A DNA stretch of 59,907 nucleotides from positions 1 through 59,907 of the IMG/VR virus record IMGVR_UViG_3300030103_004214; one strand, 5' to 3'. This stretch comes from a virus. Lineage: Duplodnaviria > Caudoviricetes. Below, piece by piece: positions 10,509 to 15,256 of the stretch (position 1 is the first letter of the stretch; each line of letters opens with the position of its first letter). The notes below the pieces were generated by a model, which was not told the DNA's origin, searched no databases, and worked only from the letters and a program-made list of their open reading frames with translations. The translations under genes and the position numbers were made by a program.

Positions 10509-10799
10509 TTACCTTCTGGGATCGTCAAAATCAATCCAGTGTATACAGTCAACAGGACAAGTATCGATTGCTTCTTGTATTAATTCAGGACTATCACCAT
10601 CTTGTCGGATAGCACGACTTTTACCTCTTTCCTCTGCAACAATAAAAGTATTTGATGCAACGTGAACACAATATTGACAACCAATACATTCTTCTTCATC
10701 TACCCATACTGCTTTCTCACACAACTCTCCACCAAGACAAGGTTCATAACCTGTTATCTCAGTGTTATCAAATATCTCAAATGCAATACGAGGATCAAT
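10509..10799 (-). CDS. Cyanobacterial-type 3Fe-4S/4Fe-4S ferredoxin; start uncertain (ATT 10799 or TTG 10724)
   Basis: VWVDEEECIGCQYCVHVA...AIDTCPVDCIHW. The frame stays open upstream through GYEPCLGGEL, which resembles the N-terminus of picocyanobacterial homologues. Confidence 0.85.
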   Translation of the reverse strand: MDPRIAFEIFDNTEITGYEPCLGGELCEKAVWVDEEECIGCQYCVHVASNTFIVAEERGKSRAIRQDGDSPELIQEAIDTCPVDCIHWIDFDDPRR

Positions 10800-10931: not shown

Positions 10932-11195
10932 TTATTTAAAGAAGTCGCTATATTCTCCCGTAGGATCTCCAAACACTCTAATTTTTTTGTATTTATTATC
11001 TTTCCTTCTTTGTTTCAATGCGTCTACACCTGTTGAAAAGTCACTTTTATTTACTTTTGTAGATGGTGTATCTGGTGTTGATGGTTTAGATGGTGTTTTA
11101 CCTTTAGGTTTTAATAAATTATATAAAGCGACACCACCAAGACCTAAACCCACCATTGTCTTTAGACCTTCATTAAATTGTTTAAAAGTTTTCAT
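10932..11195 (-). CDS. Hypothetical protein with MKTFKQFNE leader and Gly-rich hydrophobic segment
   Basis: 87-aa ORF; ATGA overlap with the upstream gene. Confidence 0.75.
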   Translation of the reverse strand: MKTFKQFNEGLKTMVGLGLGGVALYNLLKPKGKTPSKPSTPDTPSTKVNKSDFSTGVDALKQRRKDNKYKKIRVFGDPTGEYSDFFK

Positions 11196-11680
11196 GTTCC
11201 TAATCTAATTTTTGCGTCTTTTGGTTTGAATGCTAGTGTTGTATTTATAGGTTTTTCTTTATTTTTTATCGGTGTTGTTTCAATTTTATTTTTATTAGTT
11301 TTATTGTTTGTCGGTGCTGTCTCAATTTTATTTTTATTAGTTTTATTTTTTGCTATTGTAGTATTACTTAGTGTATCAGATACAAAATTTCTTCCATCTG
11401 GACCTACAAATTTATTAGCAGTAGATAAACCCTTAACACCCTTTGCTATTTTATCACTTTTACTTACAAATTTAGCACCTTGAAATATTTTACCACCAGG
11501 TACTGCACCTAAAGCACTTAGTGCAGCTCTACCATAATTACCCTTTCTTGCTTGCTTAACAGCATCATATGCAGAATATGCAGCTAATCCTGCACCTATT
11601 ACTTTTCCTGCAACTGCAAGAGCAGGTAATCCTTCATTTAATTTATTGGTTTCCTGTTGAAACTCATTAAATGTTTTCAT
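11192..11680 (-). CDS. Hypothetical protein with MKTFNEFQQE leader, Gly/Ala-rich hydrophobic helices and a tandem repeat
   Basis: 162-aa ORF; TAATG coupling. Confidence 0.75.
   Translation of the reverse strand: MKTFNEFQQETNKLNEGLPALAVAGKVIGAGLAAYSAYDAVKQARKGNYGRAALSALGAVPGGKIFQGAKFVSKSDKIAKGVKGLSTANKFVGPDGRNFVSDTLSNTTIAKNKTNKNKIETAPTNNKTNKNKIETTPIKNKEKPINTTLAFKPKDAKIRLGT
11269..11352. repeat. 42-bp tandem repeat x2 encoding (N/K)NKTNKNKIET(A/T)P
   Basis: Copies at 11269-11310 and 11311-11352 differ at three positions. Confidence 0.9.
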
Positions 11681-11895: not shown

Positions 11896-12693
11896 ATGAC
11901 AAGTTTGATCGACCCAAAAAAGTATACGAAGACACTTGACCTATTAAGGTCATTTTTTTTGTCTAAAGGTTTCTTAGAAGTTCATACTCAGAACCGTTTA
12001 AGTATACTTGCTGCTTGTGAAGACCCAGAGACAGTAGCAACATACACATACAACGGTGAAATCTGGCCGTTACCTCAAACAGGACAAATGTGGTTAGAAT
12101 ATGAACTCCTGAAAAATCCTGATGTTCCTGGTTTCTTTTGCCTATCTACTTCCTATCGACAAGAACCTAATCCAGTTGCAGGTAGACACGAAGTAATATT
12201 TCCAATGTTTGAGTTTGAGATGCATGGTGGTATAGAAGAACTTAAAAAGATGGAAATTGAATTATGTAAACATCTTGGATTACCAGATTTAGAAATTGAA
12301 ACATATGATGATTGGACAAATATGTTCAATACAAAAGAATTAGATCATGATCACGAGGATAAAATTGGTTATGGTATGATTACTGACTTCCCAGAATTTA
12401 CATCTCCTTTCTGGAATATGTCGAGAAACGACGATGGTAAGACTAGTCGAAAGATTGACGTAATCTTAAATGGTATGGAAACAATTGGTAGTGCAGAACG
12501 TAGCACTGACAAAAAACAGATGCGTGATACCTTCCATACGATATCTGATGGCGAATATGCTAACTTACTTTACAAATTATTTGGTAAGGAAAGAGTTGAA
12601 AAAGAACTTGAAGAGTTCTTAGAGTTTGATTTCTTCCCTCGCAGTGGTGGTGGGATAGGAGTTACACGCATAATGCAAGCGATCCCTGATTAG
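11896..12693 (+). CDS. Class II (Asp/Asn/Lys-type) aminoacyl-tRNA synthetase catalytic-core protein lacking the anticodon-binding domain
   Basis: Motif 1 LRSFFLSKGFLEVHT; LPQTGQMWLE; motif 2 SYRQE...RHEVIFPMFEFEM; PFW; ETIGSAER; motif 3 PRSGGGIGVTR. Only 265 aa, with no N-terminal OB-fold. Confidence 0.88.
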   Translation: MTSLIDPKKYTKTLDLLRSFFLSKGFLEVHTQNRLSILAACEDPETVATYTYNGEIWPLPQTGQMWLEYELLKNPDVPGFFCLSTSYRQEPNPVAGRHEVIFPMFEFEMHGGIEELKKMEIELCKHLGLPDLEIETYDDWTNMFNTKELDHDHEDKIGYGMITDFPEFTSPFWNMSRNDDGKTSRKIDVILNGMETIGSAERSTDKKQMRDTFHTISDGEYANLLYKLFGKERVEKELEEFLEFDFFPRSGGGIGVTRIMQAIPD

Positions 12694-12698
12694 GGATC
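12681..12698 (+). other. Perfect 7-bp hairpin over the synthetase-like stop codon, directly 5' of the tRNA
   Basis: GATCCCT-GATT-AGGGATC. Confidence 0.7.
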
Positions 12699-12702
12699 TC
12701 AA

Positions 12703-12788
12703 TGTGGGGTGGCGAAACTGGTAAACGCACTAGTCTGTTTAACTAGCGTTCCTGGCGGGACTTGTAGGTTCGACTCCTACCCTCACAG
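12703..12788 (+). tRNA. Atypical tRNA, anticodon GTT (Asn), long variable arm, no encoded CCA
   Basis: Acceptor TGTGGGG/CCTCACA + G73; D arm GCG-AAACTGGTAAA-CGC; anticodon stem CTAGT/ACTAG with loop CTGTTTA; 17-nt variable region with stem GTTCC/GGGAC; T arm GTAGG-TTCGACT-CCTAC. Confidence 0.92.
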
Positions 12789-12802
12789 TAAAAAGTTATT
12801 TA

Positions 12803-13843: not shown

Positions 13844-15256
13844 TTACATAAGGTTTGTAACCTTAACTCTTCTGTAGTAACGGTTCTTGTTACGTGTAAG
13901 AACACCAAGTCCTTGTCCGTCAGCCGCACTACCTTGTGAGAATGGGTTCTCGACAATACCATATCTTGTCTTGAATCCAATTTTTGGTTGGAATGTATCC
14001 TGACCAACCGCACGAACCATCTGTAGAGGAACGTATGGGCAGTAGAATAATCCAGCGTCGTATGGAGATGAACCCTTGTAACCAATAACGTAATACTGAG
14101 TATCAGATACGTTAGCTGAGAATGGGTCGATGTATACTCTATACTTACCTTGTAAAACACCAGCAAATGTATTGCCTGTGTCGTCTACGTTTAAGTTTGC
14201 ATTAAGTGCAGGTGTGTAATCTAATACACCAGCCATTGTTAATGCTGAAGCAACGTCTGCGGAACATAGGATCATGTTACCCTTTCCACGACGAGTTCTT
14301 TGTGCGATAGCGTTAGCGTCTCTTTCGATTTGGAATATAAGACCCTTAAACTTCTCAACACTCCATCTTCCGTTGGAGTCTGTGTCTAAGTCGAATGTTC
14401 CACCTGAAGCAACGTTTGCTTGTGCACCTGGTTCAGCGACGTTATAGATTGTTCTGATAACTTCTCTGTTGATTTCAGCAAGAATCTCAGTTGATAGAAT
14501 GTTTGCTAACTCAGCCTCTGCATTCAATCCGTGGATTGCTTTAAGGTCTTGAGCTAATTCTAGACTGTACTCTGCTTTTAGTGCTCTGGACTTCGCTGTT
14601 ACGGTTACTTTCTCGATTGAGAATGCCATCTGGTTGAAGTTATCACCAGTTGTTCCGAGGTCTTCAGCGTCGTCTGTACGCATACCCTGACCTACGTTGT
14701 AGTCAGTAGCATTTGTTTGTGCAGCAGTTCCATTAAGAAGTCCTGGATTAGAACCGTTCTGTGCAGTTGTACCTAAACCAACGTTGCTTGCACCTGTAGC
14801 AGTGAAACCGCTAGTAAGGTCTAATCCTTCATTCTGTCCAGAGAATGCTGAATCTGCTTCGTTGAATAGTGCTTCGCCACCAGACTGATTGTTGAATCTG
14901 GATCTCATTGCGAAGATAAGTCCTGTAGGACCATTCATTGGTTGAACACCAGCAAGGTCATAAGCGACCAAGTTTGGCATTGAACGTCTAATTAATGAGA
15001 TTAGAACTGGGTCGAAACCAGCAACAGGTCCAGTAGCACCTGCGTTAGCAGAGAAACCTGCATTAGCACCTGACTGTGTGTTTACTGTTGGTTGTTCTGA
15101 AAGGAATGATGCTTCCTCTCTTAATTCTTTTTCTTGGTTTTCAAGCAGGATTGCGGTAGTAGCTCTTCTATGAGCGTCCTTGATTGGATCAAGTCCATCA
15201 TAATCGAGGATAGGTCCCCACTTCTCCTGCAAGTGTTGTGTGTTATACATTTGCAT
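13844..15256 (-). CDS. gp23: Major capsid protein gp23
   Basis: FDPVLISLIRR, GVQPMNGPTGLIFAMR, KSRALKAEYSLELAQDLKAIHG, FQPKIGFKTRYG. Confidence 0.99.
   Translation of the reverse strand: MQMYNTQHLQEKWGPILDYDGLDPIKDAHRRATTAILLENQEKELREEASFLSEQPTVNTQSGANAGFSANAGATGPVAGFDPVLISLIRRSMPNLVAYDLAGVQPMNGPTGLIFAMRSRFNNQSGGEALFNEADSAFSGQNEGLDLTSGFTATGASNVGLGTTAQNGSNPGLLNGTAAQTNATDYNVGQGMRTDDAEDLGTTGDNFNQMAFSIEKVTVTAKSRALKAEYSLELAQDLKAIHGLNAEAELANILSTEILAEINREVIRTIYNVAEPGAQANVASGGTFDLDTDSNGRWSVEKFKGLIFQIERDANAIAQRTRRGKGNMILCSADVASALTMAGVLDYTPALNANLNVDDTGNTFAGVLQGKYRVYIDPFSANVSDTQYYVIGYKGSSPYDAGLFYCPYVPLQMVRAVGQDTFQPKIGFKTRYGIVENPFSQGSAADGQGLGVLTRNKNRYYRRVKVTNLM

Follow-up and report, generated by a model that had tools for sequence, protein, structure and literature searches.

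What does the catalytic core of an aminoacyl-tRNA synthetase do in a marine phage, when it is followed within a few nucleotides by a tRNA of unusual shape? The question is raised by IMG/VR record IMGVR_UViG_3300030103_004214, a Caudoviricetes stretch of 59,907 nt analysed here over its whole length (the window), in which a gene for a 265-residue class IIb core resembling that of asparaginyl-tRNA synthetase (AsnRS) precedes a long-armed tRNA with anticodon GUU. Together the two genes constitute a conserved, mobile cassette of marine T4-like cyanophages and other marine phages. Relatives of the enzyme also occur in bacteria, in part beside genes of pyrimidine synthesis, and we propose, with a probability of roughly one in three, that the enzyme is a ligase adenylating asparagine or aspartate (Asx) that feeds the orotate branch of this pathway and that, in phages, is paired with a carrier tRNA of Asn identity loaded by host enzymes.

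A two-gene cassette of marine phages

The original prediction, made from the sequence alone, described a 265-residue class IIb core devoid of an OB-fold, with an atypical tRNA starting 9 nt past its stop codon, and Pfam, ARAGORN and Rfam bear out this anatomy. The protein matches PF00152 (tRNA-synt_2, class II D/K/N) with an E-value of 2.3e-15 and 56.9 bits (cut-off 25) over profile positions 27-291 of 308, corresponding to the catalytic core alone. Pfam detects neither an OB-fold nor any further domain, and the N-terminal anticodon-binding domain of AsnRS is hence missing. The tRNA scores 50.6 bits against the Rfam tRNA family (RF00005, gathering score 29) and presents a 7/5 acceptor/T architecture, a canonical T loop and G18 G19.

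Linkage between the two genes was analysed in both directions, using a covariance model (R1) made from ten diverse copies of the tRNA. The viral set comprised 80 loci from an IMG/VR search, in which 593 stretches encode a relative of the enzyme, and 20 further viral contigs; three loci (L162-L164) were left out of the R1 search, and L087-L141 repeat contigs already counted. The tRNA lies directly after the enzyme gene at 95 of these 100 viral loci, with a spacer of 5-15 nt in most related loci, and four of the five remaining loci end 0-8 nt past the gene, so that only one, L076, has room for the tRNA and does not carry it. The cultured Prochlorococcus phages P-SSM2, P-SSM5 and P-SSM7, the nearest cultured relatives of the window, harbor the same cassette, with the tRNA 9-10 nt downstream. 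Conversely, a pattern scan starting from the tRNA matched at least 120 stretches, of which 80 were listed as loci, 78 of them new. The enzyme gene lies upstream in 68 of these 78, eight leave no room for it and two are chance matches to sequence that is not tRNA; among the listed matches with room, the tRNA is thus never met apart from the enzyme (68/68). The earlier view of enzyme and tRNA as a linked unit is upheld by both counts.

More distant members of the marine-phage group, 62-83% identical to the enzyme, keep the tRNA, in some cases with an encoded CCA, and several of them have been binned into metagenome-assembled genomes (MAGs); a distant query (P0137) likewise retrieved four viral loci, all with the tRNA. 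The expectation that a long-armed GUU tRNA always follows homologues of the enzyme is therefore sound for phages (95/100), but it fails at 73 of 80 genome-contig loci, described below, at both huge-phage loci and at L076. At the two huge-phage loci read there is no tRNA within 3 kb of the enzyme, and a search of two whole huge-phage records with R1 yielded no family-level match (best 66 bits, a tRNA-Leu). L076 is a complete cyanophage genome of 236 kb that encodes the enzyme and has no R1 match anywhere. Since its enzyme is nested deep in the tRNA-bearing clade and its flank resembles that of the window, the tRNA has been lost secondarily in this phage.

The genomic surroundings of the cassette vary. 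In P-SSM7 it is flanked by gp23 with three tRNAs on one side and by gp3 on the other, all in the same orientation; in P-SSM2 and P-SSM5 it is found between hypothetical genes and a lipase, and in the window it follows uvsY and is inverted. Three different contexts, in both orientations, argue that the cassette moves as a unit.

Several loci show local peculiarities. The three ordinary tRNAs that precede the cassette in P-SSM7 (L002:2720-2943) and in loci L053 and L059 are Ile-UAU, Arg-UCU and Leu-UAA, which serve AT-rich codons, and in the P-SSM7 lineage the long-armed tRNA remains with the enzyme, outside this cluster. At three loci (L008:3296-3388, L027:1312-1404 and L038:2434-2524) a palindromic insert of about 85 nt, resembling a miniature inverted-repeat transposable element, sits between the enzyme stop codon and the tRNA and shifts the latter some 90 nt downstream. 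In a MAG contig binned as Pacearchaeota (L175:3814-3900), a hairpin of about 20 nt takes the place of the tRNA after an enzyme of the marine-phage clade; it consists only of the 5' and 3' halves of the acceptor stem, G73 and CCA, and is either the residue of a deletion or a minihelix.

The window itself is a fragment of a T4-like cyanomyovirus, estimated to be 28% complete (Table 1). The original prediction regarded the cassette as its only credible plus-strand unit, and this holds: among non-overlapping open reading frames (ORFs) of at least 120 codons with an ATG start, the enzyme gene is the sole plus-strand member, as against 32 on the minus strand, which cover 53.3 kb. The tRNA of the cassette (anticodon gtt) is the only one that ARAGORN reports in the 59.9 kb of the window. 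A scan for Sigma-70 promoters and terminators around the cassette was uninformative, with six promoter-like sites versus 5.7 expected. On the minus strand nearby, two adjacent small ORFs (10932-11195 and 11192-11680) have similar N-termini (MKTFKQFNEG... and MKTFNEFQQE...) and low-complexity tails rich in Lys, Thr and Asn, resembling a tandem duplication, and a 71-residue ORF (10509-10724) displays a CxxCxxC...C pattern like that of a small 4Fe-4S ferredoxin.

Table 1. Coordinates, in the window, of the cassette, its parts and the capsid gene
Feature	Position	Strand	Basis or remark
265-residue class IIb (AsnRS-like) catalytic-core gene, ATG start, stop included	11896..12693	+	ORF list, Pfam PF00152, PHROG 29758
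Spacer, 9 nt, enzyme stop codon to tRNA position 1	12694..12702	+	read from sequence
Non-canonical type II tRNA, 86 nt, no encoded CCA	12703..12788	+	ARAGORN, Rfam, own covariance model R1
tRNA acceptor stem, U1-A72	12703-12709 / 12781-12787	+	
tRNA D stem	12712-12714 / 12726-12728	+	
tRNA anticodon stem	12730-12734 / 12742-12746	+	
tRNA anticodon loop CUGUUUA	12735..12741	+	anticodon GUU 12737-12739; position 37 = U at 12740
tRNA variable arm, 5 bp	12748-12752 / 12757-12761	+	
tRNA T stem	12764-12768 / 12776-12780	+	
tRNA discriminator G73	12788	+	
Major capsid gene gp23	13844-15256	-	window ORF list

Asparagine identity nucleotides in the tRNA and an AsnRS-like pocket motif in the enzyme

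The structure of the tRNA is supported far beyond chance. In the R1 alignment of 64 distinct relatives, pairing extends to 99.4% of cells, and both partners have changed in 23 of 25 pairs; on each of five covariation measures the alignment surpassed all of 500 shuffles, and slid controls were 39-49% paired. Within this scaffold, the nucleotides that specify asparagine are essentially fixed. Among 61 distinct family tRNAs the anticodon G34 U35 U36 and the pair U1-A72 are invariant, and G73 is present in 58 of 58. A purine normally occupies tRNA position 37, and the pyrimidine found there in the family (U in 60 tRNAs, C in one) is unusual; position 33 is also relaxed, with U in 50, C in ten and A in one, and the variable region is helical and spans 13-29 nt. 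As a baseline, 99 other distinct tRNAs from the same loci carry a purine at 37 in 98 cases and U33 in 96. The family tRNA therefore has the nucleotides by which a bacterial elongator tRNA-Asn is recognised (G34 U35 U36, G73 and U1-A72), and lacks the type I body, the purine at 37 bearing N6-threonylcarbamoyladenosine (t6A) and the U33 expected of one. It would seem, judging from its nucleotides, to be without features normal to a good decoder, and a type II tRNA combining an Asn anticodon with pyrimidine 37 and a relaxed U33 appears to be a new kind of natural tRNA. Its body looks Leu-like, since the best matches of R1 in five cellular genomes and two huge phages are mainly ordinary tRNA-Leu (or tRNA-Ser), at 57-72 bits versus 67-100 for family members.

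According to excerpts of two studies (PMC9976931, PMC2330236), the anticodon and G73 form a transplantable bacterial Asn identity set, U1-A72 is the determinant for the amidotransferase GatCAB, which ignores the anticodon, and G73 acts as an antideterminant for LeuRS; an excerpt of the first (PMC9976931) also presents t6A37 as an antideterminant against AspRS in yeast. The invariant identity nucleotides thus suggest that the tRNA holds all that host AsnRS, or non-discriminating AspRS (ND-AspRS) together with GatCAB, would need. Two expectations of the original prediction do not survive this comparison. The pair had been described as anticodon-blind, which is at variance with an anticodon conserved in 61 of 61 distinct tRNAs, and as tolerating changes in the anticodon loop; changes are indeed seen at positions 32, 33, 37 and 38, but the anticodon stays fixed throughout and U37 is itself kept in 60 of 61.

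The enzyme matches the tRNA in its apparent amino acid type. Motif 2 (SYRxE..GRH..FPMFEFE) and motif 3 (GGGIGxTR) of class II synthetases are conserved across the family in alignment A1. An AlphaFold2 model of high confidence (predicted local distance difference test, pLDDT, 95.4) superimposes in Foldseek on AspRS and AsnRS cores (TMq 0.75-0.80, E about 1e-17), as expected of a class II fold, with EpmA and the archaeal asparagine synthetase AS-A slightly further away. For AsnRS alone (class IIb; PDB 2xti, 1x54, 8tc7) the core fold agrees at TMq 0.73-0.78, and a PDB search with the family profile places AsnRS first (E 4.4e-13), followed by archaeal-type AspRS, EpmA and AS-A. The family motif PQTGQMxLE aligns to TQSSQLYLE of AsnRS, and ETIGSAERS to EIVGGSMRI; at the first motif AspRS carries AQSPQLYKQ, with Lys-Gln where the enzyme family and AsnRS have Leu-Glu. 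Leu-Glu and the Arg of GSxxR, which may have functional roles in the pocket, align with those of AsnRS, and the residues of motifs 2 and 3 are present. The pocket motif therefore looks AsnRS-like, in agreement with the Asn-type enzyme proposed earlier.

These features are those expected of a dedicated synthetase/tRNA pair, in which the core would charge the cassette tRNA with Asn through U1-A72, G73 and possibly the long arm, and the tRNA would decode AAY codons for an AT-rich phage. We consider this rather doubtful, although several observations speak for it: the strict two-way linkage, the AsnRS-like pocket with conserved ATP/Mg and motif 2/3 residues, the identity nucleotides, canonical T loop and G18 G19 of the tRNA, and the use of Asn codons, which make up 6.7% of the window's long ORFs. 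RNA-library contigs from four runs in three marine studies overlap parts of the enzyme gene, mostly as relatives less than 90% alike, and one of them covers 12624-12789, the 3' end of the gene and the whole tRNA. This adds weakly to the case, since DNA carry-over is possible and transcription is not proven thereby; stretches to which no such contig maps carry no information. A pair of this kind would, however, have to work with no anticodon-binding or other RNA-binding domain on an enzyme with a net charge of -19, and with a tRNA that is poor as a decoder, having a pyrimidine at position 37 in 61 of 61 sequences and a nucleotide other than U at position 33 in 11 of 61; furthermore, the complete phage L076 has retained the enzyme and lost the tRNA.

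The same loop positions have a bearing on readings in which the tRNA is no substrate of the enzyme. One such reading makes it a resistant decoy or substitute in the face of a host anticodon nuclease that attacks tRNA-Asn, another a cis-acting 3' element involved in processing or stabilising the enzyme mRNA; in both, the linkage would reflect no more than shared transfer and transcription. Changes at 32, 33, 37 and 38 around a fixed anticodon resemble the proposal, put forward in an excerpt of PMC10264068, that mutations in the loop let phage tRNAs evade anticodon nucleases. The start of the tRNA 5-15 nt past the stop codon and the occurrence of the enzyme elsewhere without it fit such a reading as well. 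We nonetheless hold it to be very unlikely. A free-standing anti-defence tRNA should occur alone or in clusters, yet this one is never apart from the enzyme in the listed matches with room (68/68); a purely structural 3' element needs no invariant GUU, U1-A72 or G73, and only coincidence would then pair an Asn-type enzyme with an Asn anticodon. The strict two-way linkage to a tRNA with the exact Asn identity set likewise makes hitch-hiking hard to accept.

Known families provide no ready assignment for the enzyme. Its scores fall far below the cut-offs of the curated models for canonical AsnRS (TIGR00457, 20.1 bits versus 342.6), ND-AspRS (TIGR00458, 26.4 versus 368.4), archaeal AS-A (NF005055, 23.7 versus 389) and EpmA/PoxA (TIGR00462, 25 versus 264; NF006828, 15.8 versus 286.9), the curated NCBIfam LysRS model is likewise far under its cut-off, and AsnA (PF03590) gives no match at E-values up to 1. 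Over its full length the protein is matched by PHROG 29758, a group without an assigned function (E 1.1e-165, residues 1-265 aligned to profile positions 1-267), and a Protein Atlas search returned the family's own 'putative tRNA ligase' clusters and nothing else. The enzyme corresponds to T4-GC194, annotated 'tRNA ligase', and is 86.5%, 84% and 80% identical to the 'tRNA ligase' genes of P-SSM2, P-SSM5 and P-SSM7, respectively. The GenBank records of these phages name the two genes 'tRNA ligase' and 'tRNA-Asn' and offer names only. In the excerpts available, a table of PMC3037559 lists T4-GC194 as 'tRNA ligase' for P-SSM2 and P-SSM7, and PMC1079782 does not discuss the cassette enzyme. A literature search located no functional study of the enzyme or the pair, with the proviso that the supplementary tables of PMC3037559 may say more.

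A near parallel to the enzyme is found in archaeal AS-A (AsnRS2 or AS-AR, PDB 3p8t/3rex) and bacterial AsnA, which are also stand-alone class IIb cores of fewer than 300 residues, without a tRNA-binding domain, and dimeric, and whose Asx-adenylate chemistry is plausible for the enzyme. A homodimer is predicted for it with a score of 0.77, versus 0.01 for the best of three controls, through residues 5-35 and 48-53 (motif 1). Among proteins with solved structures, 20 of 30 pairs and one of 23 single chains attain the score mark applied, and the runs agree on at least 78% of contacts with partner pLDDT of at least 88, but because class II dimers are themselves solved structures the result may reflect mere likeness. 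The acidic character of the protein (pI 4.8, charge -19) is more in keeping with a metabolic enzyme than with an RNA binder acting alone.

The simpler alternative named in the original prediction was an asparagine synthetase co-located with a tRNA-Asn. An ammonia-dependent enzyme of the AsnA or AS-A type, transferred together with an extra tRNA-Asn and raising the supply of Asn-tRNA, would account for the core-only class IIb architecture, the Asn/Asp-type pocket and the acidic, predicted dimer, as well as for the resemblance to 3rex (TMt 0.67 in Foldseek) and the weak NCBIfam and PDB-profile matches to AS-A. An asparagine source could also matter to the phage, given that the excerpt of PMC9716671 describes a marine-derived Synechococcus-like population in which no asnA was found and less than half carried asnB. 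In our view this reading is nevertheless unlikely. The enzyme resembles AS-A only weakly (profile E-value 2.7e-4 to 3p8t), the curated asparagine-synthetase models all failed, the odd anticodon loop and the long arm are left unexplained, and the tRNA follows the enzyme in phages; genomes with the enzyme and without AsnRS, discussed in the next section, weaken it further.

EpmA/PoxA (GenX), a LysRS paralogue that modifies EF-P, is also a truncated class IIb core (3a5z, TMt 0.63 in Foldseek) and moves an activated amino acid to a tRNA-shaped partner. A Lys/EpmA-type function was ruled out for the enzyme, whose pocket is of the Asn/Asp rather than the Lys type and whose neighbourhoods show no EF-P link. 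Aminoacyl-tRNA synthetase-derived domains without normal anticodon recognition, each with a particular tRNA or aminoacyl-tRNA, presumably include ProRSx with tRNA-ProA, CysRS* with a selC*-like tRNA, Glu-Q-RS and the cyclodipeptide synthases. To our knowledge none of these is of class IIb Asn type or tied to pyrimidine genes, and we know of none in which a type II tRNA body combines GUU with a pyrimidine at position 37.

Cellular relatives and their pyrimidine genes

The enzyme family is large and compact. At least 8000 protein clusters match the enzyme at an E-value of 0.001 or better, and a full-library search returned 687 representatives at E-values up to 0.001, 174 of them at 1e-30 or lower, nearly all 260-300 residues long. 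In a quick maximum-likelihood tree of 104 rows the family forms a single clade, which a very long branch separates from AsnRS, AspRS, LysRS and EpmA. Four subclades can be distinguished (Proteobacteria with huge phages, Bacteroidota, marine phages, and Patescibacteria), and members are also present in Dependentiae. In a comparison of 99 members from phages and cells, 75 of 265 positions reach an invariance of 97% or more, and the sole internal position specific to the tRNA-linked clade is 161 (M versus F). An enzyme so nearly unchanged across clades very probably catalyses one and the same reaction whether or not the special tRNA is present, which is difficult to reconcile with a dedicated synthetase for that tRNA.

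One-per-species genomes contain 409 relatives, the best 80 of which were taken as loci. The tRNA is present at seven of these 80 genome-contig loci, all seven in the marine-phage clade, and absent from the other 73; cellular members, 57-63% identical to the enzyme, do not have it. The original prediction had been staked on homologues keeping the tRNA, and here it falls short in part: distant homologues usually lack it, and position 161 alone marks the clade that has it.

Among 151 genomes of a Patescibacteria class sample, six encode the enzyme; canonical AsnRS exceeds its cut-off in one of the 151, and none of the six carriers is among the 24 genomes with weaker matches. An accessory AsnRS would be useful to carriers without a canonical one (0/6), which favors a charging function, although with only six carriers in 151 genomes the enzyme is not the general AsnRS of the group. 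The same genomes count against a plain asparagine synthetase: Patescibacteria carriers have GatB and no AsnRS able to use free Asn, and genomes with AsnA, according to an excerpt of PMC2330236, use AsnRS and not GatCAB. In five carrier genomes (G001-G005), GatB is found in all but G001, AsnB in two, AsnA in none and a bona fide AsnRS in G001 alone. The neighbours of the gene in Patescibacteria are typically Dus (17 loci) and DnaX (14 loci). In one complete Patescibacteria genome (L217:62-865) a second stand-alone class II core, of 267 residues and of the G/H/P/S/T type (Pfam tRNA-synt_2b), lies three genes upstream of the enzyme, with FtsQ and Dus in between.

Elsewhere the enzyme keeps company with pyrimidine genes. 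In 19 of the 79 cellular and MAG neighbourhoods analysed (L229 not included), distributed over three phyla, pyrD and/or pyrF, a pyrF-pyrE fusion or a phosphoribosyltransferase-like gene lies within two ORFs of the enzyme. Two layouts recur: pyrD followed by the enzyme in Bacteroidota, and the enzyme followed by pyrF and a phosphoribosyltransferase gene in Pasteurellaceae and Alphaproteobacteria. In one Rickettsiaceae MAG a transporter gene precedes the enzyme, which is followed by a PyrD-like gene and phosphoribosyl pyrophosphate synthetase. Two tRNA-bearing, phage-like contigs also have a DHO_dh-like neighbour, at 46 bits in L167 and at 23.5 bits, under the cut-off, in L174. In an Aureispira MAG (L178:1677-2633) a metallo-beta-lactamase-fold gene lies between PyrD and the enzyme on the same strand, and may belong to the same pathway.

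In five pyr-linked carrier genomes, of unstated completeness and with G001 as the only isolate, pyrB exceeds its cut-off in none, versus 14 of 14 controls; pyrC_multi likewise does so in none of the five, versus 11 of 14 controls, and pyrC_dimer has no match in any of them. In phages, PyrE homologues occur in 13 of 50,697 records, namely six records of P-SSM2, P-SSM5 and P-SSM7, six single-cell virus fragments and one huge phage, and among enzyme-bearing phages pyrE is above cut-off in P-SSM2, P-SSM5, P-SSM7, two complete uncultivated virus genomes (179 and 236 kb) and two fragments. Every complete phage with the enzyme thus has pyrE as well, and among cultured phages the two genes co-occur exactly, though P-SSM2 and P-SSM5 are one species and few independent lineages therefore stand behind this agreement.

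Gene context of this kind speaks against translation as the primary role of the enzyme. Pyrimidine operons in three phyla, with pyrD, pyrF, pyrE and prs as partners and pyrB missing, together with phage pyrE, are hard to square with either a pure translation factor or a plain asparagine synthetase; neither the synthetase/tRNA pair nor co-transfer of an asparagine synthetase explains them, and they also set the enzyme apart from AsnRS, as do its domain content, profile score and long branch.

A possible entry to the orotate branch

The presence of pyrD, pyrF, pyrE and prs without aspartate carbamoyltransferase, and of pyrE in phages, leads us to favor a small-molecule ligase, the reading to which we assign odds of about one in three. 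Under this proposal the enzyme would be a homodimeric core derived from AsnRS that binds ATP and a substrate of the Asn/Asp type and acts as a ligase of the AsnA or archaeal AS-A chemical type, with the same chemistry in phages, Patescibacteria, Bacteroidota, Proteobacteria and Dependentiae. It would supply a ring precursor, dihydroorotate or a compound convertible to it, to the branch leading from orotate to uridine monophosphate, for example from Asn, CO2 and ATP, or by an ATP-driven ring closure. The tRNA would be a carrier of Asn identity rather than an ordinary decoder, charged via anticodon and discriminator by host AsnRS, or by ND-AspRS and GatCAB. It might hand its Asn to the enzyme, an AsnRS core being able to dock the Asn-A76 end, or might instead buffer the supply of Asn-tRNA while the enzyme draws on the Asx pool.

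In its most specific form, which we regard as quite unlikely, the proposal would make the enzyme the front end of pyrimidine synthesis. Dihydroorotate would be formed straight from Asn (e.g. from Asn, CO2 and ATP via a carbamoyl-adenylate), bypassing carbamoyl-phosphate synthetase, aspartate carbamoyltransferase and dihydroorotase, and in phages the Asn would be delivered on a private, translation-crippled tRNA loaded by host ND-AspRS and GatCAB, or by AsnRS, through the anticodon, G73 and U1-A72. A literature search found no alternative dihydroorotate route.

A number of observations weigh against a ligase feeding the orotate branch. The five genomes without pyrB are mostly MAGs of unstated completeness, and two of the five have sub-threshold PyrC-like matches (204-244 bits). 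No pyrD was found in any of the enzyme-bearing phages examined for pyrE, nor was pyrE found in four phage fragments, the 28% complete window among them. The Dus and DnaX neighbours of the Patescibacteria genes fit a pyrimidine link poorly, and in the class sample pyrD occurs in 29 of 151 genomes, no carrier among them (0/6), and a pyrE-like match in 21 of 151, with one of the six carriers showing a weak one. Of 14 further Patescibacteria carriers, seven have orotidine 5'-monophosphate decarboxylase, six a DHO_dh match and four neither. The Patescibacteria data in fact match none of the four readings cleanly. At the level of mechanism, anatomy, linkage, conservation, covariation and gene contexts are observed, but the substrate, the product, the charging enzyme and any transfer from tRNA to enzyme are inferred, and a carrier role leaves no chemical use for the ester bond of the charged tRNA. 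The enzyme also occurs without the special tRNA, in one complete phage and in cells, and an Asn anticodon beside an Asn-type enzyme is just how a true synthetase/tRNA pair would look.

The cassette is abundant, with at least 8000 matching protein clusters and 593 IMG/VR stretches, and it has been present in model cyanophages cultured for two decades. Should the enzyme turn out to charge the tRNA, no natural class II synthetase would be smaller, and the cassette would amount to a ready-made orthogonal pair. If it feeds the orotate branch, this would explain the presence of pyrD, pyrE and pyrF without pyrB in Pasteurellaceae, Rickettsiales, Dependentiae, predatory Bacteroidota and some Patescibacteria, and would add to the auxiliary metabolism of ocean phages a new route for raising nucleotide supply; should Asn be presented on the tRNA at the front end, nucleotide synthesis would be fed by a tRNA-dependent amino acid pathway. 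Under either outcome, the odd type II tRNA(GUU) would represent a new kind of natural tRNA.

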